Source: an uncultured Bacilli bacterium (GTDB lineage: Bacteria; Bacillota_I; Bacilli_A; RF39; UBA660). From it: a stretch of 8,429 nucleotides of DNA. Position numbers and translations under genes: made by a program. The notes below the pieces were generated by a model that was given only the letters and a program-made list of their open reading frames with translations, had not been told where the DNA came from and searched no databases. Every line of letters begins with the position of its first letter. The stretch's first letter is position 1. The stretch is from assembly GCA_949113215.1 (NCBI GenBank), contig CARZYU010000045.1, forward strand, positions 1 to 8,429. Reading direction: 5' to 3'. Below are positions 1 to 8,429 of the stretch, in pieces.

Positions 1-43
1 AATGAAATTTAGTGTGCGTGTCTTACGCCCCTTCGGTTGTTTC

Positions 44-121
44 CCGCGCGGGCGGTTTCCTAAAACGGTAATGAGAACTGGAACAATGTTAACAAACGGA
101 ATGTTGGGGCTCGCCCAGATT
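44..121 (+). repeat. DGR template repeat (TR), non-coding donor copy
   Basis: Ungapped 78-nt match to 1625-1702 at a constant offset of 1581, which is a multiple of 3. 61/78 positions are identical. 16 of the 17 differences are at TR adenines (A62,63,65,70,71,76,77,83,86,92,94,95,96,100,101,119), changed to C x8, G x5 and T x3. Six TR adenines are unchanged and 55/56 non-A positions are identical. Read in the VR frame, the TR has seven AAY (Asn) codons (64-66, 70-72, 76-78, 82-84, 85-87, 91-93, 100-102), the classic DGR design. It lies in non-coding DNA directly upstream of the RT. It is a GC-rich island in an AT-rich background. Confidence 0.9.
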
Positions 122-342
122 CACTTTTGAAGGAATCAAATTGGTTCAGAAAACAGATCTGTGAAATATATTTTAAGTAAAATATATCCGTATTTTAAAG
201 TGAAGGAATTTTCTTCTTTCTCGTCTCGCTAAGGAACAAGATTCTAATGCGAACGAAGCAATCAAAAAGCACTCACACAAACAACGAGTGAGGTTCACTC
301 TTTGGGCGTTATTCGGGGTGTTTCTTTTGTTGGAGGAAAACA
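122..342 (+). ncRNA. Spacer segment of the putative DGR RNA (between TR and RT), predicted to be structured
   Basis: 221 nt with no ORF between the TR end and the RT start. TCACTTT (121-127) is complementary to AAAGTGA (197-203), which closes a domain starting right at the TR 3' end. A 9-bp A/U hairpin spans 166-174/179-187 with loop AAGT. ACAGATCTGT (153-162) is a palindrome. TGAAGGAAT is directly repeated at 128-136 and 201-209. CACTC/GAGTG-type alternative pairings occur at 270-300. In the Bordetella phage BPP-1 DGR, the RNA 3' of the TR is required for priming cDNA synthesis. Exact RNA ends are unknown here. Confidence 0.5.
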
Positions 343-1371
343 ATGACAGTGGAAGAAATATTCACATTTGAAAACTTATACGATGCTTACAAGCATTGTA
401 GACTTGGAAAGCAACACAAGGGAGAGGTCATTCGTTTTGAAACAAATTTGGCCGTTCAGTTAAATGATTTAAGAAAAGATCTGAAGAGCAAAACGTATCA
501 ATTAGGAAATTATAAAACGTTTCATATTTATGAACCGAAAGAGCGGTTGATCGAGGCCCTTCCCTTTAAAGATCGTGTCGTAATCCGCTGTTTTTGTGAT
601 GTATGTTTAAAACCAAAGATAGAACCGAAGTTAATCTATGATAACTGTGCTTGTCGAAGGGGGGGAAAGGGGACAGCATTTGCGATTCGGAGGTTACATC
701 AATTTCTACGGAGTGTGTATTTCGAGGAAAAAACCAATCAATTCTATTTTTTAAAGTGTGATATTCGTAAGTATTTTCCCAATATCAATCATGACACTTT
801 AATTCATCTATTAGAAGAATTAAAGTTTTCTAAAGATGAAATGTGGATGAACGAAAAGTTAATCAAGGAGCAACCAGATCATTCGTCGCTAGGACTTCCT
901 CTTGGGAATCAATCTAGCCAGTGGTTTGCACTTCTCTATTTAAACAAAATTGATCATTTTATTAAAGAACAATTGAAAATAAAATACTATGTTCGTTATA
1001 TGGATGATATGATTTTGGTTCATCCGAACAAAGTTTATTTGGCGAAATGCAAACAAGAGATCAAAAAGATGTGTAAAGATCTTTTACAATTAGAACTGAA
1101 TGAAAAGACGCAAATTGGTATCGTAAAAAATGGAATTGATTTCCTTGGATATCGACATATGGTAAGCAAAACAGGAAAGATCATTGTGAAAATACGTTCT
1201 TCTTCCAAACAACGTATGAAAAAACACTTAAAAACGTTAAACAAGTTATACCAAAAGAATATCGTCGATGAAGACTATGTCTATTTAAGAAAAAATGCTT
1301 TTTACAATCATATCAAAGATACGAACGAGAATAAGAAATTTAAGGTTGACACCTTTCCTTCTAAAAAATAA
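343..1371 (+). CDS. DGR-type reverse transcriptase
   Basis: 342-aa ORF with a GGAGG RBS at 332-336, 6 nt before the ATG. The translation shows LPLGNQSSQ (nt 901-921), matching the [LIV]GxxxSQ motif that distinguishes DGR RTs from group II intron and retron RTs. It also shows the catalytic YMDD box in RYMDDMILV (nt 997-1008) and a downstream FLGY motif. It is compact, with no maturase, endonuclease or other appended domain. It sits immediately 3' of the TR. Confidence 0.93.
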   Translation: MTVEEIFTFENLYDAYKHCRLGKQHKGEVIRFETNLAVQLNDLRKDLKSKTYQLGNYKTFHIYEPKERLIEALPFKDRVVIRCFCDVCLKPKIEPKLIYDNCACRRGGKGTAFAIRRLHQFLRSVYFEEKTNQFYFLKCDIRKYFPNINHDTLIHLLEELKFSKDEMWMNEKLIKEQPDHSSLGLPLGNQSSQWFALLYLNKIDHFIKEQLKIKYYVRYMDDMILVHPNKVYLAKCKQEIKKMCKDLLQLELNEKTQIGIVKNGIDFLGYRHMVSKTGKIIVKIRSSSKQRMKKHLKTLNKLYQKNIVDEDYVYLRKNAFYNHIKDTNENKKFKVDTFPSKK

Positions 1372-1377
1372 AAGATT

Positions 1378-3342
1378 TTGGAAAATCATGGTATAATTGA
1401 CATGGTGATATCTATGTTTCAAAACGAAATAACCTTTTTAAGTTCAGATCAAATTTTTGGAAGAAATTCCTTGGACCTTTTTAAACATTATAGTAGAGAA
1501 TGTGCGATTACCGATTTTTCGATTTTATTAGGCGGTTATGTAGATGATAAGATAACAGTAGAGGATAATCTTGGAAAACATTATACTGATTGGTGGTGGA
1601 CGAGAGACTATTTTAATGATAGCTCCGCGCGGGCGGTTTCCCCGAGCGGTCGTGAGCTCTGGAGCACTGTTAGCCTCCGGTCTGTTGGGGCTCGCCCAGC
1701 TTTGCCGTACTCTCTCATCTCTTCCTTCTGCTCGAACGCAGTGAGAGTAAAAAAGGGAATTTGTGAAGTTCAATTTGGAGAATATCCACAATGGATTGTA
1801 GATCAAACCTTGGCACCTGAATTGGAATACCAATATAACAATGCTTCTACCATGAGGAATACAGGAAAAAAATATACGACAGATTCGGTTGATTGGGATG
1901 AATATGAGACTGGTTTTCTAGCGAAAGAACATATAGAATATGAGTATCAAAACAATAAATATATTCGAATAATAGGGGATTATAATGGAAAGGGAAAAAG
2001 ATTATCCGATGGTAGGAAGGTTAAAGAAGGAGATCCTTACTGGATTAAAGTAGAACCGATCACTTGGATAGTTGACGAAAAGGCCAATATTGCCCTTGCG
2101 AAATATCTTCTTTTTGCCGGGGTTCAATATGATCTTCTTAAAGATTATCAACAGGATTTTAATCAAACAAATATCAAGCGATTTTTAACGACGTATTTTG
2201 CCAATGATATTGTTGCATCACGAATAGTCCAAAATCAAGAAGAGCAAACTGGGAAAATAAGAAGGAAGCCAAATCCATATGGTTTTCATTTTAATGGTGT
2301 CAGTGAAGAGGATATGATTAAGGGAGCGGTGGAAAGTAATGTCCCCGTGTTTTTGCATGGCAAAAGTAGCGATGGAAAAAGCGCCAGGGTCAAGCAATTA
2401 GATCCCGATTGTGAGATCATTTATATGCGAAATGCTACTCCAGATAGTTTGAATGGAAAGAGTGTTTACAATGCAAACACTGGAGAGATGATCGATATAC
2501 CACCAACATGGTATCAAAGTCTAAAAGAAAAGTGTGAAAAAGAGCCTGACAAGATTCATATTTTATTTTTCGATGAATTAACCAATGCTCTACCATCCAT
2601 TCAAGGAATGGCCTTTAATATCGTATTAGACAAAGAAGTAAATGGAAAGTGGCAATTACCGGAGAACGTTCGAATTGTGGCAGCAGGAAACGATTTGAAC
2701 GATTCTTTAGCGGCCAATCAGATGGCAGAACCACTCTTCAATCGTTTTGCGCATGTTTATATTAATACGACGGTTGATAGCTGGTTGGAATGGGCGACAA
2801 CGCCAAACGAAAGTTACGAACGATTAAATTATGAGAAAGTGGTCGGAAAAAGGCCTAAAATTCATCCGGCAGTCTATGCTTACATTGCATATAAATCTTT
2901 TTCTCATCAAGATGTTTTGAGAACTCCTTATACGGGAGACAAACCCAATGCCGATCCTAGAAAATGGGAAATGGCCTCCAAGGTGCTGTATGAAACGAGG
3001 CAACCCGAGATGTTACGAGCTCTGATCGGAGAAGAATTGACAAGAGATTTTGTAATGTTTTCGAAACAATCCTTTTTAACGGTAGAAGATGTACTCAATC
3101 ACAATTACACAAAAGAAGAAATTGAAAGAATGAATGCGTCCATGAAATTTGCGACTGCGGTTGGACTTTCTTCTGTGGATCAAGAACATTTTGAAGTGAT
3201 AAGAGACTTTATGAAAGAGATTGGATCAGAACCCAAAGCAGCTTTTGAATCCATGTGGACGCATGGAGATGAAGATCGATTAGAACATCTTGCAGAAATT
3301 AGGCTAAAAGAAGCAAATATGGAAGGAGGAAAGGGAAAATGA
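1378..3342 (+). CDS. DGR variable (target) protein: N-terminal VR-bearing putative ligand-binding domain fused to a MoxR/AAA_5-like AAA+ ATPase
   Basis: 654-aa ORF. The VR covers codons 83-109 within ...YTDWWWTRDYFNDSSARAVSPSGRELWSTVSLRSVGARPALPY... AAA+ motifs are Walker A GKSSDGKS (G328-S335, nt 2359-2382) and Walker B ILFFDE (nt 2560-2577) followed by LTNALPSIQ in MoxR style. A sensor-1-like VAAGN is at nt 2677-2691, and LFNRF (R456, nt 2743-2745) resembles the MoxR L-x-DRF segment. The N-terminus has no signal peptide or TM segment. The start is uncertain: the track start at 1378 is TTG with a poor RBS. In-frame ATGs at 1402 and 1414 (GGTGA 5 nt upstream) are alternatives. Confidence 0.85.
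   Translation: MENHGIIDMVISMFQNEITFLSSDQIFGRNSLDLFKHYSRECAITDFSILLGGYVDDKITVEDNLGKHYTDWWWTRDYFNDSSARAVSPSGRELWSTVSLRSVGARPALPYSLISSFCSNAVRVKKGICEVQFGEYPQWIVDQTLAPELEYQYNNASTMRNTGKKYTTDSVDWDEYETGFLAKEHIEYEYQNNKYIRIIGDYNGKGKRLSDGRKVKEGDPYWIKVEPITWIVDEKANIALAKYLLFAGVQYDLLKDYQQDFNQTNIKRFLTTYFANDIVASRIVQNQEEQTGKIRRKPNPYGFHFNGVSEEDMIKGAVESNVPVFLHGKSSDGKSARVKQLDPDCEIIYMRNATPDSLNGKSVYNANTGEMIDIPPTWYQSLKEKCEKEPDKIHILFFDELTNALPSIQGMAFNIVLDKEVNGKWQLPENVRIVAAGNDLNDSLAANQMAEPLFNRFAHVYINTTVDSWLEWATTPNESYERLNYEKVVGKRPKIHPAVYAYIAYKSFSHQDVLRTPYTGDKPNADPRKWEMASKVLYETRQPEMLRALIGEELTRDFVMFSKQSFLTVEDVLNHNYTKEEIERMNASMKFATAVGLSSVDQEHFEVIRDFMKEIGSEPKAAFESMWTHGDEDRLEHLAEIRLKEANMEGGKGK
1625..1702 (+). repeat. DGR variable repeat (VR) inside the target CDS
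   Basis: This is the recipient copy of the TR (see feature 44-121). It is in frame and differs from the TR-encoded sequence at 10 codons (aa 89, 90, 92, 94, 96, 97, 99, 100, 102, 108). The scaffold residues (ARAVS, G91, E93, W95, V98, R101, VGARP) are encoded by TR bases other than mutated adenines. It is a local GC-rich island within an AT-rich gene. Confidence 0.9.
1684..1705 (+). other. Candidate IMH-like element at the VR 3' end (G/C-rich block GGGGCTCGCCC plus diverging flank)
   Basis: The TR 3' end is GTTGGGGCTCGCCCAGATTCAC and the VR 3' end is GTTGGGGCTCGCCCAGCTTTGC. The G/C-rich core is identical, followed by a few TR-versus-VR differences (1700, 1703, 1704). This is the arrangement described for IMH/IMH* in BPP-1. 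The assignment is by analogy only. Confidence 0.4.
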
Positions 3343-3740
3343 CAGAAGAGCGGATGGACTTGTTAGAGAAGTATTTAAGAAGTGGTTTTAATCCTATTTT
3401 AGTAGAAGATATTCCAGTAGATTCTTTCCACAACTCTGTCGTTTTACCAGCGACTCTTGATCCATTAGAACTCAATGGGCATTACGAAGATCGTAATTTT
3501 TGTCCTCCCCATTGGTATCAAGAATTAGTAGAAAAAAGTAAAAAAGAAGCAGTGATTTTACTGATTGAAAATATCAATGAGGTTGATCCTTTTGAACAGA
3601 ATAAATTTATCGAACTTTTAAAGTATAAGAAAATCAGTACCTTTTCTCTTCCTATGAATTGTCTCGTTCTTGTAACTTGTAAAAATTTAGAAGAAAGAAA
3701 GTTAAGTGAAGAGGTTTTCTCTTTGCTTGCGAAAATATAA
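3339..3740 (+). CDS. Small degenerate AAA+-like protein (paralog of the ATPase core of the upstream gene, Walker A and B ablated)
   Basis: 133-aa ORF. Its ATG overlaps the upstream TGA (ATGA at 3339-3342), and an AAGGAGG RBS lies at 3323-3329. By-eye alignment to aa ~310-440 of the 654-aa protein gives: CPPHWYQELVEKSKKE..VILLIENINEVDPFEQNKFIELL...SLPMNCLVLVTCKN versus IPPTWYQSLKEKCEKE...HILFFDELTNALPSIQGMAFNIVL...QLPENVRIVAAGN. The Walker A position reads EDIPVDSF instead of GKSSDGKS. Walker B DE is replaced by EN. Confidence 0.65.
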   Translation: MTEERMDLLEKYLRSGFNPILVEDIPVDSFHNSVVLPATLDPLELNGHYEDRNFCPPHWYQELVEKSKKEAVILLIENINEVDPFEQNKFIELLKYKKISTFSLPMNCLVLVTCKNLEERKLSEEVFSLLAKI

Positions 3741-3745
3741 GAGCA

Positions 3746-5119
3746 ATGATCGATATCGAAGCAATCAAACGAAAACTATTGGTAAAATATGCTCCTTTTG
3801 GAAGTGTAGTAGCCAATGTGGGTTTTAAGGAAGAAGATTCGGTTCCTACCGCTGGTACCGACGGTAAAACGATTTATTATAATTCGAAATTTGTAGAGTC
3901 TTTAACCGAAAAAGAAACGACGTTTCTTTTTGCTCATGAAATTTGTCATATTGCCTTTGACCATATTTATCGGTCCGAAGGAAAGGATGGGAAAATTTGG
4001 AATATTGCTACGGATGCGGTTATCAACGCCATGTTAAAGAAAGATAAACTACCTTTGATGAAAGGCGGAGTAGACAGGGAAGATGGAAACTATCTAAGTG
4101 CTGAGGAACTGTATGAGAAACTTTTAAAAGAGCAAAAGCAGGAAAATCAGAACAGTAATCAAGATGAATCAGAACATAATGATAAGTCACAGGAAAAGTC
4201 AAATCAGAATTCTAGTAACACCCAAGGAGACGGACAAGCAAGTGATAAAATGGAAGATAAACAAGAAAGCAGTGAAGGATCTTCGAAGGAGGAACAACAA
4301 GATAAGGATCAAGATGTGGGACACGATACACATGAAATGTGGAAAAAAGCAGTGAAGGAACGACAAGAAGAGAGAAAAAAGAGCCAAGAAAATGATAAGG
4401 GCGAAGAAAATCCTTCTACGAATAAAACGGAACCAATCAACGAGCAAGAAGTGTTTAAACAACTGCAAATAGAGAGAAAAAAACAGTTGGAGGAACTGCG
4501 CAAGTCCATTGTGAAAGAGTCACATACTCCTGGAGCAATGAGTAATGGTGAAGTGAGAGAGGTAAATGAAATTGGAGTTTCCAAACCACTGATCGATTGG
4601 CGAAGGTTATTAAAAGAGGCTATCAAATTCGATGTCGATTGGACGTATCAAAATGCCAGTGTTGAAGATGGAGTAGTGACCCCTTATTTGGAAGAACTTC
4701 CAAAACCAGAGACAGAAATTGTCTTAGATACGAGTGGTTCGATCGATGAAAACTTGCTTCGCAACTTCTTGAGAGAATGTAAGAATATTTTACAAAATTC
4801 CAAGGTGAAGGTAGGTTGTTTTGATACAAGGTTTTATGGTTTTACGGAAATCAGAAGTATAGAAGATATCGATCGTCTAACGTTTCAAGGTGGTGGCGGT
4901 ACGAACTTTGATGTTGCCGTTTCTGCTTTTACAAAAAGAGTAGAAAATAAAATCATCTTTACCGATGGAGAAGCCTCGATGCCTAGTATGTCCCTTGATG
5001 CAGTCTGGGTTGTATTTGGAAGTAGAAAAATAGCACCACCTGGTGGAAAGGTCATTCCAATCGATGAAGAGGCCCTTGAAAATTTATCTTATGACACTTC
5101 TTCAAAACACCGAAGATAA
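3746..5119 (+). CDS. Putative metallopeptidase-like (HExxH) plus VWA-domain protein, DUF2201-type partner of MoxR ATPases
   Basis: 457-aa ORF starting 5 nt after the previous stop. The N-terminal domain has HEICHIAFDH (H64-H68, nt 3935-3949) followed by NIATDAVIN. Residues ~125-260 form a Q/E/K/S/N/D-rich low-complexity linker. The C-terminal domain has a MIDAS-like DTSGS (D328-S332, nt 4727-4741), then GGGTNF and a FTDGE segment typical of VWA folds. This HExxH N-domain plus VWA-like C-domain architecture is what I recall for Pfam DUF2201_N/DUF2201 proteins, which usually neighbour MoxR AAA+ genes. Confidence 0.85.
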   Translation: MIDIEAIKRKLLVKYAPFGSVVANVGFKEEDSVPTAGTDGKTIYYNSKFVESLTEKETTFLFAHEICHIAFDHIYRSEGKDGKIWNIATDAVINAMLKKDKLPLMKGGVDREDGNYLSAEELYEKLLKEQKQENQNSNQDESEHNDKSQEKSNQNSSNTQGDGQASDKMEDKQESSEGSSKEEQQDKDQDVGHDTHEMWKKAVKERQEERKKSQENDKGEENPSTNKTEPINEQEVFKQLQIERKKQLEELRKSIVKESHTPGAMSNGEVREVNEIGVSKPLIDWRRLLKEAIKFDVDWTYQNASVEDGVVTPYLEELPKPETEIVLDTSGSIDENLLRNFLRECKNILQNSKVKVGCFDTRFYGFTEIRSIEDIDRLTFQGGGGTNFDVAVSAFTKRVENKIIFTDGEASMPSMSLDAVWVVFGSRKIAPPGGKVIPIDEEALENLSYDTSSKHRR

Positions 5120-5151
5120 AAAATCTCACTTGAATTCAAGTGAGATTTTTT
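5118..5151. terminator. Bidirectional Rho-independent terminator (perfect palindrome)
   Basis: AAAAAATCTCACTTGAATTCAAGTGAGATTTTTT is a perfect 34-nt palindrome. The core 9-bp stem is TCTCACTTG/CAAGTGAGA (5124-5132/5137-5145) with loop AATT. An A-run lies on the left and a T-run on the right. It sits between the convergent stops at 5119 (+) and 5155 (-). Confidence 0.88.
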
Positions 5152-5154
5152 CTG

Positions 5155-5994
5155 TTAGAGAGAAATGTTTAGTTTTCGATTGATTGTCACGCATATCTTT
5201 CGAATGAGCCCATTTCCATATTTGTTTTTAAATTGATCTGTTTCAAATATTTTCTTAAATTCTTCAAAACTTCTAGAAGCAGGAATTCTTGGGATTTTAT
5301 AATTATCAACACCTTTGGTGGCAAATTCTTCTTCTCCGGCAAAGGCAAGCTTATAGTTTTCTTCTTTCAAACTCTTAATAAAGTCTTCTGTATAAGTGTA
5401 ATAAGGATAAGCCAAATATTCTGCGGGAAAGAGCGCTTGGAACTTTTTAGTGTCTTCCCTTAGTTCTTGATACGTTTTCTTTTTGATAATAGGAGTTCCA
5501 TCTTCTGCTTGACGATGTAATCCATAAGTGTGGGAACCAAATGTAATTTGACCATCGTGATTTTTGATATCATTTAAGCCGATGAAATCAGTTCCTTCGC
5601 TTGAAGTTTCTCCAGTAAACTCTCCAACAACAAAAGAAGTAGCTTTGAAGTGGTACTTGTCTAAGACAGGTTTTGCATATTTAAGGAAAGAATAGTATCC
5701 ATCATCAAATGTAATCATAAAAGATTTTTCTGGTATCTTCTGATTCTTTTCTTTCCAATTGTAATATTCTTCGGGAGAAATACTAACGTATCCTTTTTCT
5801 TTTAAATAATTTAGCTGTCTTTCAAACTCTTCTACGGTCAACGCATCAACATCCTTTTCTTCCTCTGTTAAGACAATGCGGTGATAAGCAAGAACTGGGA
5901 ATTGTTGTTGATGTTTGTGATATTCTTTCCATAATAGAAAGGCAATGAAGAAGCTTAAGATCGCTAATGATAAATAGATTAATTTCTTTTTCAT
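5155..5994 (-). CDS. Membrane-anchored polysaccharide deacetylase (CE4 / NodB-homology, PgaB/IcaB-like)
   Basis: The translation shows an N-terminal hydrophobic anchor (KKKLIYLSLAILSFFIAFLLW), then LAYHRI, the TFDDG motif (ITFDDGYYSF) and the His motif GSHTYGLH. The track ORF begins at a TTG (6000). I prefer the ATG at 5994 (third codon), which lies 8 nt downstream of an AAGGA RBS on the minus strand. Confidence 0.85.
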   Translation of the reverse strand: MKKKLIYLSLAILSFFIAFLLWKEYHKHQQQFPVLAYHRIVLTEEEKDVDALTVEEFERQLNYLKEKGYVSISPEEYYNWKEKNQKIPEKSFMITFDDGYYSFLKYAKPVLDKYHFKATSFVVGEFTGETSSEGTDFIGLNDIKNHDGQITFGSHTYGLHRQAEDGTPIIKKKTYQELREDTKKFQALFPAEYLAYPYYTYTEDFIKSLKEENYKLAFAGEEEFATKGVDNYKIPRIPASRSFEEFKKIFETDQFKNKYGNGLIRKICVTINRKLNISL

Positions 5995-6133
5995 GATCAA
6001 GTTCCTTTCACTATTTGCATTGTACTATAAAAGAAGTTATTTTGCTACTAATAAAGGAGAATGTAAGAGTTTTAGTTTGGGATATCCTGCTCTGTTGATA
6101 GTTGTCTCTTCTTGTAATAATTTAATTCTATTG

Positions 6134-6943
6134 TCATGCTCGATTATTTTTCAAATATTTATTATCGCTTTCTGATAATATCTTCATTTGAGAAATGGCA
6201 ATTTTATTTAATCTATCAAGTCTATTTGATTGATTTAATCCATCGTTTATAAATACTGCATTTAAATTTTCTAAATTTGCTAAACATATTAGCTCATCAA
6301 TAGAAGCATAATCTCTTATATTTCCACTTTTATCTTTATTTTTCTCTCTCCAACTTTTTGCAGTCAGACCAAATAAAGCCATATTTAGAACATCTGCTTC
6401 TTCAGCATAAATATAATTTATTTCTTCTTTTGTTAATTCTTTAGGTATTAAATTATCCTTAATAGCGCTAGTATGAATTTTGTAATTGATTTTAGATAAT
6501 TCTCTTTTAACATTCCATCCCATTTGCCTTTGTTCTTCAGTCTTTAATCTTTCAAATTCTTTTATTAATAGTAATTTGAACTTGGGACTAATCCACATGC
6601 CAAATTCAAATGCTATATCCTTATGAGCGTACGTTCCCCCATATCTTCCTGCTTTTGATACAATACCAATAGCATTTGTTTTACGAGCCCATTCTTTAAC
6701 GCTAATTTTATAACGGTTAAGACCTGCTTGACTTTTAATTATGGCGAATTCGCCATAATTAAAATTAGGATTGTGAAGTTCTTCCCAAATACCCAAAAAT
6801 TCAATTGTATTTCTATTCCTTAACCAATCAGATACAAAAAATTCACCATCTTTTGACTTAAGCATATCCGTAATAGAAATATAATCTTCATCATTTATTT
6901 TTGTATAATTAATTATTTGATTATCAACATTTAATTCCAACAT
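6134..6943 (-). CDS. KilA-N domain-containing protein (phage/accessory-type DNA-binding domain) with a helical C-terminal half
   Basis: 269-aa ORF with an AAGGAG RBS (complement of 6951-6956). The N-terminal half has the KilA-N-like pattern ...ISITDM...WLRNRNTIEFLGIWE...GRYGGTYAHKDIAFEFGMWISPKFKLLLIKEF... It is markedly more AT-rich than its neighbours. Confidence 0.75.
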   Translation of the reverse strand: MLELNVDNQIINYTKINDEDYISITDMLKSKDGEFFVSDWLRNRNTIEFLGIWEELHNPNFNYGEFAIIKSQAGLNRYKISVKEWARKTNAIGIVSKAGRYGGTYAHKDIAFEFGMWISPKFKLLLIKEFERLKTEEQRQMGWNVKRELSKINYKIHTSAIKDNLIPKELTKEEINYIYAEEADVLNMALFGLTAKSWREKNKDKSGNIRDYASIDELICLANLENLNAVFINDGLNQSNRLDRLNKIAISQMKILSESDNKYLKNNRA

Positions 6944-7171
6944 AAATCTAATCTCCTTTCCATTTTTGCAGACATATCTGCAAAATATAATTCACTAATA
7001 ATGGAAAACCATTATCTTGTCATTTTCCATTGTCAATGGATCGCTTGTTTTCGTATTTTCTTTATTGATATCCGAACCTCCATTTTTTGTGCTGCTCACT
7101 TTTATTATTCGCAAACGGGTTGTATTTGGAAAACTTTCTTATAAAAATATGTTCTTTTTTCTAAAAAAGCC

Positions 7172-7201
7172 TTGCATTACATAGAATGTCTATGATAAAA
7201 T
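7172..7201 (+). promoter_or_regulatory. Sigma-70/SigA-type promoter for the S10 operon
   Basis: -35 TTGCAT (7172-7177), an 18-nt spacer, and an extended -10 TGaTAAAAT (7193-7201). An A/T-rich UP-like tract lies upstream (7141-7170). It is ~125 nt upstream of rpsJ. Confidence 0.5.
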
Positions 7202-7204
7202 GAT

Positions 7205-7320
7205 CCATGTGTGGCTGCTTAGATGTGGGAGGTTGCCGATACACTAGGACGAGTTGTCATAATCGTATCGGGTTATTCACACGGAGCAAGTCTATACTAG
7301 ATATAGGCGAAGGGAGGATA
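7205..7320 (+). promoter_or_regulatory. Structured 5' leader of the S10 operon (possible ribosomal-protein autoregulatory leader)
   Basis: Nested complementary segments: GTGTG (7209-7213) with CACAC (7278-7282), and CCGATAC (7236-7242) with GTATCGG (7265-7271). It is relatively GC-rich compared with its surroundings. The GGGAGG RBS follows at ~7313-7318. Confidence 0.35.
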
Positions 7321-7325
7321 AAAAT

Positions 7326-7634
7326 ATGTCAAAAGAAAAAGTTCGTATCAGATTAAAAGCGTACGATCACAGAGTTCTTGACAACGCCGCAACAAAAATT
7401 GTGGAAACAATTAAAAGATCAGGAGGAGAAATTTCTGGACCAGTTCCACTTCCAACCGAAGTTGAGAAGTTCACGATCTTAAGAGCGGTTCACAAGTACA
7501 AAGATTCACGTGAACAATTTGAAAGACGTACACACAAGAGATTGATTGACATTAAAAATCCAAGCAAGGAAACCATTGATGCTTTAGCACATCTTGATTT
7601 ACCAAGCGGAGTAAACATCGAAATCAAATTATAA
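7326..7634 (+). CDS. rpsJ: 30S ribosomal protein S10
   Basis: 102-aa translation [19 protein letters not shown]...GPVPLPTE...[15 protein letters not shown]... is unmistakably S10. It has a strong RBS and is followed by rplC, as in the conserved S10 operon. Confidence 0.97.
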
Positions 7635-7658
7635 AAGATATTTTAGGAGGAAAAGAAA

Positions 7659-8429
7659 ATGAAAGGAATCTTAGGAAAAAAGATTGGCATGACTCAAGTC
7701 TTTGCTACAAACGGTAAATTGACTCCTGTTACAGTCATCGAAGTAGAACCAAATGTCGTAACCCAAATCAAAACTGTAGAAAAAGACGGATACGATGCCA
7801 TCCAATTAGGTTATGAAACCGTAAGAGAACATGTTAGCAACAAACCAAAAATGGGTCATACCAAAAAAGCAGGTACTGCACCTAAGCGCTTCTTGAGAGA
7901 AATAAGAGGAGTTAACGTAGCAGATTACACGTTGGGACAAAACGTAACAGCATCTATTTTTGAAGTAGGAGAAATGGTGGATGTTACTGGTACCAGCAAA
8001 GGAAAAGGATACCAAGGTGTCATCAAACGTTACAACCAAACGAGAGGTCCTATGGGACATGGTTCACAATACCATAGAGGAGTAGGTTCTCTTGGTACGA
8101 TGTTACCAATGCACGTATTAAAAGGTAAAAAGTTACCAGGACATATGGGTAATGTCACAAGAACCGTACAAAATTTGGAAGTCGTTGCCATTGACGAAGA
8201 GAATCATTGTTTATTAATCAAAGGAAACGTTCCAGGACCAAAGAATTCGTTGGTAATGATTCGTACTGCAGTCAAAAATCCAGGAAAGGTCAATCCACAA
8301 GAAGAATTGATTACTTATGTAGAAGAAGTTCAAGAAGAAGTAGTGGAAACACCGATCGAAGAAACCGTGGTTGAAGAGACTGTAGAAGAAACTCCTGTGG
8401 AAACAGTAGAAACGACGGAAGAAGTCGTA
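7659..8429 (+). CDS. rplC: 50S ribosomal protein L3 (3' end beyond the window), with an acidic repetitive C-terminal extension
   Basis: It is absent from the ORF track because it has no stop in the window. AGGAGG lies at 7645-7650 and the ATG at 7659. My translation is [34 protein letters not shown]...[36 protein letters not shown]...[21 protein letters not shown], a canonical L3. It stays open for 257 codons to the window end. Confidence 0.95.

Follow-up and report, generated by a model that had tools for sequence, protein, structure and literature searches.

A diversity-generating retroelement directed at the proposed lectin-like head of a soluble AAA+ ATPase encoded with a peptidase-VWA protein in uncultured Bacilli

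What would a retroelement that rewrites a stretch of protein-coding sequence be doing when the protein in question is a soluble ATPase of the cytoplasm, encoded beside a putative peptidase? This is the question raised by a contig from an uncultured bacterium of the Bacilli (CARZYU010000045.1, positions 1 to 8,429, hereafter the window, which means the whole 8,429-nt stretch analyzed). As read from its sequence, a chromosomal diversity-generating retroelement (DGR) diversifies about 14 codons of a surface loop or hairpin in the lectin-like head of a soluble AAA+ ATPase, and this ATPase is genetically coupled to an apparently active zinc-peptidase/von Willebrand factor A (VWA) protein and to a dead AAA subunit. 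There is little doubt about this anatomy, whereas its possible role has to be argued with more reserve.

The sole long repeat in the window pairs positions 44-121 with positions 1625-1702, over 78 nt with 17 mismatches. Adenines of the upstream copy account for 16 of the 17 (binomial probability of at least 16 of 17, ~2e-8), and at these adenine sites the downstream copy carries any base. The lone mismatch of another kind, T61 changed to C1642, lies within a TAA codon of the upstream copy whose two adenines are also changed. When read in the frame of the downstream gene, the upstream copy shows seven AAY codons, an in-frame TAA and 19 of its 22 adenines at codon position 1 or 2, which therefore indicates a non-coding template. 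Its computed coding capacity is ~3e11 protein variants, at residues 89-102 and 108 of the target, and the flanks of the repeats show no decay in the window. The reverse transcriptase (RT) encoded between both copies is full length by sequence reading, with YMDD and QSSQ motifs, and aligns over its whole length with the RTs of 20 related loci; its best phage matches (36-41% identity) include the DGR RTs of phage nd12 (40%) and of Faecalibacterium phage FP_Brigit. An earlier note, made from the letters of the window and without database searches, had proposed a DGR here, and both the adenine bias of the mismatches and the intact RT bear it out: the element is real and looks recently active. All the components listed in that note were recovered where it had placed them, and the features of the window are as follows:

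44..121, + strand: DGR template repeat (TR), non-coding, a 78-nt repeat shared with the variable repeat (VR)
115..342, + strand: structured DGR RNA spacer from TR to RT, with covariation across 17 loci
343..1371, + strand: DGR reverse transcriptase, 342 aa, YMDD, intact (RVT_1 7e-18; phrog_1423 8.7e-99)
1378..3342, + strand: DGR target, a lectin-like N-terminal module (N-module) plus an AAA_5/MoxR-like ATPase, 654 aa from TTG 1378
1414..2250, + strand: putative ligand-binding N-module, aa ~13-290, made of a VR-bearing DUF6273-type part and a beta-rich insert
1625..1702, + strand: VR, with variable codons aa 89-102 and 108, ending in GARPALP
2299..2763, + strand: AAA+ alpha/beta core, aa ~308-462, with Walker A at G328-S335 and Walker B at F397-E400 (motifs, Foldseek, phrog_1297 8.6e-41)
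3339..3740, + strand: 133-aa degenerate paralog of the AAA core, whose start overlaps the target stop (ATGA)
3746..5119, + strand: DUF2201 protein, 457 aa (DUF2201_N 6.7e-30; DUF2201 1.1e-13; phrog_1314 1.2e-67)
5113..5156, unstranded: bidirectional intrinsic terminator hairpin, A6-stem-T6, with 22-nt arms, 91% complementary and without spacer

The TR-RT spacer, of ~220 nt, is more conserved than the proteins. Across 17 loci, 96% of the cells in its helices are paired, as compared to 38-57% in slid controls, and compensatory changes are found at 18 pairs against 1-4 in the controls, values that were matched by 0 of 500 shuffles. A long-range helix joins the 3′ edge of the TR (115-127) to positions 197-206, and further hairpins are found at ~133-147, 166-187, 220-256 and 267-323, the last one followed by a T-run just 5′ of the ribosome-binding site of the RT gene. 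This spacer RNA would probably be a priming or scaffold element of the DGR RNA in the clade. Because the window begins 43 nt 5′ of the TR, anything further upstream is cut off, including an accessory gene: each of the 19 RT-intact relatives examined has, directly upstream of the TR, a conserved ~194-aa gene that ends ~370 nt 5′ of the RT, and the C-terminal 110 residues of its product match bAvd (PF22296) at E-values from 8e-6 to 1e-2, below the cut-off. By analogy, the bAvd-like gene of the window locus probably lies just beyond the window edge, and the full element consists of avd, TR, structured spacer, RT and target.

The RT gene and the open reading frames (ORFs) of 654, 133 and 457 aa are closely packed on the + strand. 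None of the four proteins contains a transmembrane segment or a signal-like N-terminus (maximum KD19 1.17), in agreement with the original description of the diversified protein as one without either. The target probably starts at ATG 1414 and not at TTG 1378, since its homologs begin with MNNFTFLT and a GGTGA ribosome-binding site precedes position 1414; the RT-target gap would therefore be ~42 nt instead of 6, and the residue numbers would shift by 12. In consequence, the proposal of a single terminator-bounded operon with gaps of 0-6 nt stands only for its 3′ part, where the ATGA overlap, a 5-nt gap between the 133-aa and DUF2201 ORFs and the final hairpin are all present, whereas the RT-target gap is probably wider and the 5′ boundary falls outside the window. 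The hairpin (5113-5156) separates the operon from a convergent polysaccharide-deacetylase gene; it was recognized with a repeat finder and by sequence reading, and a simple terminator scan missed its stem, which is poor in G-C pairs.

The VR maps to aa 83-108 of the ATPase-fused protein, that is, to its N-terminal part. AlphaFold2 modelling of this region, one of the checks suggested at the outset, predicts with confidence that residues ~10-280 form one compact module (predicted local distance difference test, pLDDT, 86; predicted TM-score, pTM, 0.86). The N-module of the window protein has no Pfam match; searches of the target against the PDB, both with the single sequence and with a profile, gave nothing useful; Foldseek matches of the full-length model are dominated by AAA+ proteins and are uninformative on the N-module; and BLASTP of the N-module against the target of phage nd12 gave no match. 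Low-probability hhalign comparisons do align the motif W-WW-T-R..A-R-A-V...G....G-A-R-P of the N-module with the same motif of the nd12 target, and a search of BFVD gave weak matches to DUF6273 phage proteins. Moreover, two homologs with tandem N-modules, P0003 and P0176, match Pfam DUF6273 above the cut-off, in both cases across the junction and up to the VR. The matched stretches run from the last part of one N-module into the first part of its neighbour (aa 265-361 in P0003 and aa 214-375 in P0176). The arrangement suggests that the N-module is circularly permuted with respect to the Pfam domain, with the VR-bearing half first, the 'W.V..' half last and the beta-rich insert between them. 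DUF6273 domains carry the VR in DGR targets of gut phages and are reported to be C-lectin-like (PMC10743442, PMC11792537). From the motif and by transfer from these homologs, the N-module is taken to be a DUF6273-type lectin-like head.

The same module also occurs in other contexts: as a standalone 329-aa ORF downstream of the cassette (locus L012, 14242-15231), in tandem (P0003), and fused to ankyrin or DUF4116 repeats, with a weakly supported fusion to BspA-type leucine-rich repeats (among P0255, P0176 and P0303). A total of 1,124 cluster representatives match it at E <= 1e-10, and the N-module thus seems to behave as a portable binding head compatible with DGRs.

In the ATPase domain, Walker A (GKSSDGKS, K334), Walker B (FFDE) and the LTNA..Q and NRF motifs show no variation among 45 homologs, in which residues G328, G333, K334, S335, F397-A404, N438 (sensor 1) and R456 are invariant. 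The window protein itself falls below the Pfam cut-offs (AAA_5, 16.2 bits vs 22; Sigma54_activat, 19.7 vs 20.2) and has no NCBIfam match. Its homologs P0171 and P0313 do exceed the AAA_5 cut-off (26.1 and 25.2 bits), and P0171 aligns with the window ATPase at E 9e-24; AAA_3, the family of MoxR proper, is reached only by a homolog and at E 0.005. Structural matches found with Foldseek, to AAA+ proteins of the helix-2-insert clade, were the MoxR protein NorQ (9qh4_C, E 1.4e-4, TMt 0.44), NorQD (9qhd_B), in which NorQ is paired with its VWA partner NorD, McrB (6hz4/6ut6), MCM and the sigma-54 activator NtrC1. Given that typical homologs pass AAA_5 and that P0171 aligns with the window ATPase, the label 'AAA_5/MoxR-like' is justified, whereas 'MoxR proper' does not follow from the profile scores. 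The initial assignment to MoxR-type ATPases therefore holds for the invariant Walker and sensor motifs and for the homologs that pass AAA_5, and not for the window protein's own AAA_5 score.

The two genes downstream of the target can also be read with some precision. The 133-aa protein can be aligned end to end with the target's ATPase core (probability 91.5% in hhalign, E 8.7e-7), lacks the lysine of Walker A, the acidic pair (DE) of Walker B and the arginine finger, and its gene is found in nearly all related loci; judging from its sequence, it is a catalytically dead AAA paralog, as had been supposed. The DUF2201 protein is composed of a gluzincin-like HExxH domain (aa 9-187; H64/E65/H68), a charged linker (aa ~130-270) and a VWA-like domain (aa 325-439) with a metal ion-dependent adhesion site (MIDAS), DTSGS, at 328. 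Both Pfam profiles suggested for it score well above threshold (DUF2201_N, 105 bits vs a cut-off of 23.2; DUF2201, 51.8 vs 26.4), so that the reading of an HExxH-VWA protein is upheld. The HExxH motif is conserved in 68 of 71 homologs and the MIDAS motif DxSGS in at least 66 of 69, which indicates that the peptidase and VWA domains are both probably functional. The linker (4130-4560) is of low complexity, rich in E/K/Q/N/S, with a strong AT and GC skew, and its length differs among homologs. No TR-like repeat was found in the VWA protein.

How widespread is this arrangement, and how tightly is the DGR bound to it? More than 3,000 target homologs can be detected, and the top 120, which come from gut metagenomes, are without exception full-length fusions. 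When one genome was scanned for each GTDB species, 205 encoding stretches emerged; the best 77 loci, described here, belong mainly to uncultured Bacilli of gut and rumen (RF39-like 'Tenericutes', Coprobacillus CAG:605) and in some cases to Clostridia. The order target, 133-aa gene and DUF2201 gene is held in essentially all sufficiently long loci. Among the 61 loci with enough upstream sequence for a census of the RT, an intact RT gene lies directly upstream in 20, RT fragments are present in 8 and no RT is found within 10 kb in 33, and the DGR or its remnants are thus present at roughly a third to a half of the cassette loci. As to whether RT and TR occur together with the three-gene cassette, a survey that the earlier note had called for, the association recurs in many species with co-diverging RTs, but it is not obligatory. 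In 17 RT-intact GTDB loci the TR was detected ~300 nt 5′ of the RT, and its differences from the N-terminal VR are predominantly, and in many loci exclusively, at adenines. The identity of the RT declines in step with that of the target, which suggests that both have long been co-inherited, with repeated loss of the RT. Intact avd-TR-RT sets are found in lineages diverged to 47-75% protein identity, and RT stubs of 149-175 aa in close relatives. Truncated or fragmented RT genes (149-250 aa) next to an intact three-gene cassette were observed at loci L090-L093, L005, L032, L033, L045, L058, L061 and L064.

Loci without RT often contain two to five tandem target paralogs that have one small gene and one DUF2201 gene in common. 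In L049 (4713-18369), five to six diverged target paralogs and two small-gene/DUF2201 sets occur without RT, and in L053 (4690-14131) four target copies are 100% identical over 301 nt, VRs included, through either recent amplification or an assembly artefact. With regard to sequence diversity among relatives, in clusters of more than 90% identity the multi-allelic columns gather at the VR (aa 80-104), where nine sequences may show as many as eight residue types. The RT-less lineage CAG:605 shows two VR alleles only, and the protein P0122 is identical on 22 contigs from different samples.

Relatives of the cassette also occur in phages. The ATPase region of the target (aa 312-631) matches phrog_1297 (8.6e-41) and the DUF2201 protein matches phrog_1314. 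By tblastn, 588 records of N4-like, rV5-like and jumbo phages were found to contain the ATPase, and in both phage records examined a DUF2201-type gene, labelled 'HNH endonuclease' or unannotated, follows the ATPase gene. The label 'HNH endonuclease', given to the DUF2201-type proteins of phages in PHROGs and GenBank (e.g., L082, 4514-5614; Salmonella phage TR2 gp15), looks like an annotation error passed on from record to record, the protein being an HExxH peptidase/VWA protein. The phage pair (phrog_1297/phrog_1314; N4-like, rV5-like and group 2.2 jumbo phages) is homologous to the one described here, adjacent and in the same order, but it has no variable module at the N-terminus, no dead AAA paralog and no DGR, all three of which are present here. 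On the side of the retroelement, the nearest kin of the RT are DGR RTs of gut phages, and nd12 also has an RT followed by a target with an N-terminal DUF6273. Among these tentaclin-type DGRs (nd4, nd12; PMC10743442) and the DUF6273 targets of Faecalibacterium phages (PMC11792537), which include the closest phage relative of the RT (40% identity) and share the RT-then-target order, the tentaclin VR sits in the N-terminal DUF6273 domain, as is proposed here, and ends in W-WW..R..A..V...G....G[AV]RP, as here. Tentaclins run on into immunoglobulin (Ig)-like domains and are receptor-binding proteins of the virion, whereas the head described here is followed by an AAA+ ATPase at a cellular locus. 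Since both the ATPase/DUF2201 pair and the RT/DUF6273 layout have phage relatives, the cellular cassette looks like a fusion of two phage-derived parts.

The general idea of DGR-diversified sensors in MoxR-vWA systems is already published. Some 80% of VMAP-ternary (MoxR-vWA-VMAP) systems in cyanobacteria and gammaproteobacteria are linked to a DGR, with a variable FGS domain placed C-terminally on the vWA component (Kaur et al. 2020, PMC7159879), and such DGR targets have been proposed to be antigen sensors that signal via MoxR (Doré et al. 2024, PMC10907252). The impression given in the earlier note that a DGR wired to a MoxR-VWA module had gone unrecognized was thus overstated, and the sensor idea itself has been put forward before. 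The DGR-linked MoxR-vWA (VMAP/iSTAND) systems of cyanobacteria, gammaproteobacteria and Thiohalocapsa likewise combine a DGR-varied domain of a mostly cytoplasmic protein, there of lectin fold and here putatively so, with a MoxR-like AAA+ protein, a vWA component and a peptidase, and the same logic leading from a variable sensor to an ATPase and then to an effector was already proposed for them. They differ in that their FGS/CLec domain is C-terminal, on the vWA component or on a STAND NTPase, and of the FGE/TvpA type, whereas here the head is N-terminal on the ATPase itself and of the DUF6273 type. Moreover, their third part is VMAP and here, judging from the gene present, a dead AAA core; their effectors are trypsin-like, caspase-like or TIR, in contrast to the HExxH peptidase (DUF2201) on the vWA protein; and their hosts are multicellular, unlike the unicellular, small-genome gut Firmicutes considered here.

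McrBC offers a further parallel, with a variable N-terminal specificity domain on an AAA_5-class NTPase and a separate effector subunit, as in the present case. McrB, however, is a GTPase; it recognizes modified DNA and brings in a nuclease, whereas the effector here is a peptidase-VWA protein and the specificity is made by a retroelement. AAA-type NTPases are also known within DGR targets, as midasin-like AAA or P-loop NTPase motifs were reported in some targets of the Candidate Phyla Radiation (category g1 / UVR4; Wu et al. 2018, PMC5758913). In those targets, which belong to another lineage, the NTPase is located upstream of a VR that is C-terminal and of unknown fold, and a peptidase-VWA partner was not reported. 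Ig-type classes with an N-terminal VR (Wu; Roux) were likewise considered, and rejected because they are phage tail-fibre families with different domains. New in the present system are the fusion of the head to the N-terminus of the ATPase, the phage-type peptidase-VWA and dead AAA partners, the tentaclin-type DGR and the unicellular gut hosts; no paper on a DGR architecture of DUF6273 head, ATPase, dead AAA and DUF2201 protein was found in a literature coverage that is incomplete.

What could such a machine do? The most coherent pathway would start with an oligomeric ATPase that shows several identical variable lectin heads, which would pick a protein ligand. ATP hydrolysis would remodel the captured ligand or complex, the VWA/peptidase partner would dock next, the dead AAA subunit serving as its adaptor or as a regulator, and the docked peptidase would finally cut the ligand or a downstream substrate. 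The likeliest role would be the cytoplasmic recognition of fast-evolving foreign proteins, such as those of phages, in a protein-targeting conflict system akin to the MoxR-vWA systems that are linked to DGRs in cyanobacteria and gammaproteobacteria; the retroelement would give this system an anticipatory diversity of specificities on the scale of its ~3e11 variants. A conflict role is favoured because of the scale of the programmed diversity, the strain-level turnover of VRs, the paralog arrays, the patchy multi-copy distribution and the variable insertion sites, as well as the phage ancestry and the published parallel in DGR-linked MoxR-vWA systems. Taken as a whole, with its anatomy, the path from sensor to ATPase to peptidase and the conflict role, this statement is judged slightly more probable than its negation. 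An immune role as such is plausible, at somewhat less than an even chance. A bolder version, in which the retroelement sets which substrates an ATP-driven unfoldase-peptidase accepts, so that a domesticated phage chaperone-protease pair and a phage DGR would together make a programmable AAA+ protease or immune receptor that can be retargeted to new phage proteins, is held less likely than not.

Several observations weigh against the statement as a whole, or lend it no support. Continuous diversification is dispensable for retention of the cassette, since 33 of the 61 loci lack an RT and the RTs of close relatives are cut down. For the N-module model, Foldseek retrieved no significant PDB neighbour (best E 0.13), and the hoped-for match to Mtd or TvpA was not seen; the proposed lectin fold rests on the DUF6273 match in homologs and on the VR motif. 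The ATPase part of the target (AAA+ core plus helical C-terminal region) was modelled by AlphaFold2 at moderate confidence (pLDDT 50-75). For the homologous phage pair, Iyer et al. 2021 (PMC7824862) proposed a MoxR/metallopeptidase-vWA chaperone/protease role in the assembly of virions, and not one in immunity. None of the three core proteins (target, 133-aa and DUF2201 protein) is matched by a PADLOC v2 model, and the RT is matched by generic RT/DRT models only. Finally, a location in defence islands, which the earlier note had wanted checked, finds no support: in a Pfam/PADLOC scan that covered the first 150 ORFs out of 436 flanking ones, taken from the initial 23 GTDB loci, the neighbours are mostly housekeeping genes, with 3 integrases, 2 transposases, a few helix-turn-helix proteins and a few PADLOC matches.

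Some of these observations would fit a host chaperone or protease acting on self substrates, which would assemble or mature a complex of the host and in which the head tunes which host substrate, or which variable self component, is handled, a matter of physiological adjustment and not of immunity. MoxR-VWA pairs are classically maturation chaperones (NorQ/NorD, CbbQ/CbbO, RavA/ViaA), and such a function would agree with the NorQ and NorQD structural matches, with the housekeeping neighbours and with the retention of the cassette in RT-less loci. However, self substrates do not call for ~3e11 variants, the VR columns are hypervariable among near-identical strains, and tandem paralog arrays with a patchy multi-copy distribution are typical of conflict genes. 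Moreover, no conserved candidate substrate gene is linked to the cassette; beyond the dead AAA and DUF2201 genes, no further conserved gene was seen with it in the related loci. A chaperone of this type is therefore considered improbable.

The phage relatives of both halves of the cassette, from the phrog_1297/phrog_1314 pair of N4-like, rV5-like and jumbo phages to the gut-phage RTs with the nd12-like layout, could also point to a module of mobile elements, either a prophage remnant or a satellite, in which the DGR and the ATPase/peptidase-VWA pair remain phage property and serve in superinfection exclusion, counter-defence or the processing of virion proteins. Integrases and a TnpB gene are found near some loci, and one IMG/VR contig (L094) carries the system ~7 kb from siphovirus tail genes. 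This contig is the only one with a relative among 2.9 million viral contigs, as compared to 205 stretches in cellular species genomes, its cellular ABC-transporter genes separate the system from the prophage end, and the other loci have housekeeping flanks without phage structural genes, so that a phage-borne system was largely rejected and a mobile module seems unlikely. As to a decaying DGR relic, whose hypermutation is no longer needed and whose VR diversity is historical, it would account for the RT fragments (8 of 61 loci) and absences, for the stubs of close relatives, for the unchanged P0122 and for the two VR alleles of CAG:605, but it is hard to reconcile with a window RT of full length with its catalytic motifs, with 16 of 17 TR/VR differences at adenines between undecayed flanks, with a spacer RNA under structural selection and with the persistence of intact avd-TR-RT sets across lineages at 47-75% protein identity; such a relic is given little weight.

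The interest of the system lies in its size and its hosts. That cellular DGRs make intracellular 'antigen sensors' has so far been proposed from comparative genomics, with large multi-domain loci and with organisms that are difficult to work with, whereas here ~5.5 kb hold the whole idea: avd, TR, RT, an ATPase with a variable head, its small paralog and a peptidase-VWA protein. Because it is compact and its enzymatic motifs are clear and mutable, the cassette offers a practical test system for the retargeting of a cytoplasmic machine by a DGR. DGR-linked systems of the MoxR-VWA type are not restricted to multicellular bacteria, and the DUF6273-type lectin-like module is a portable head compatible with DGRs. 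The widespread phage ATPase/peptidase-VWA pair has a cellular counterpart whose ligand could reveal the target of the phage pair. Were the reading as a programmable protease true, unicellular gut bacteria would possess anticipatory recognition at the protein level, retargetable within a population.

3′ of the operon come the deacetylase gene, a minus-strand KilA-N gene, an S10 leader and rpsJ. The KilA-N protein (269 aa; 6134-6943, minus strand), encoded between the operon and rpsJ, matches the PADLOC candidate family PDC-S22 (E 1.8e-125) and also the phage regulator family phrog_2657. The leader, an S10-Clostridia ribosomal protein leader (RF03136; 7212-7310; 38.1 bits, above the gathering score), precedes rpsJ (7326-7634). 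In the closest relative, L083, whose target is 78% identical, this operon again occupies the site upstream of the S10 operon. The intervening genes differ: a DUF1016/YhcG nuclease-like gene and a 95-aa ORF in L083 (9285-11057), and the deacetylase and KilA-N genes in the window (5155-7310). The region beside rpsJ may thus be a small variable hotspot.

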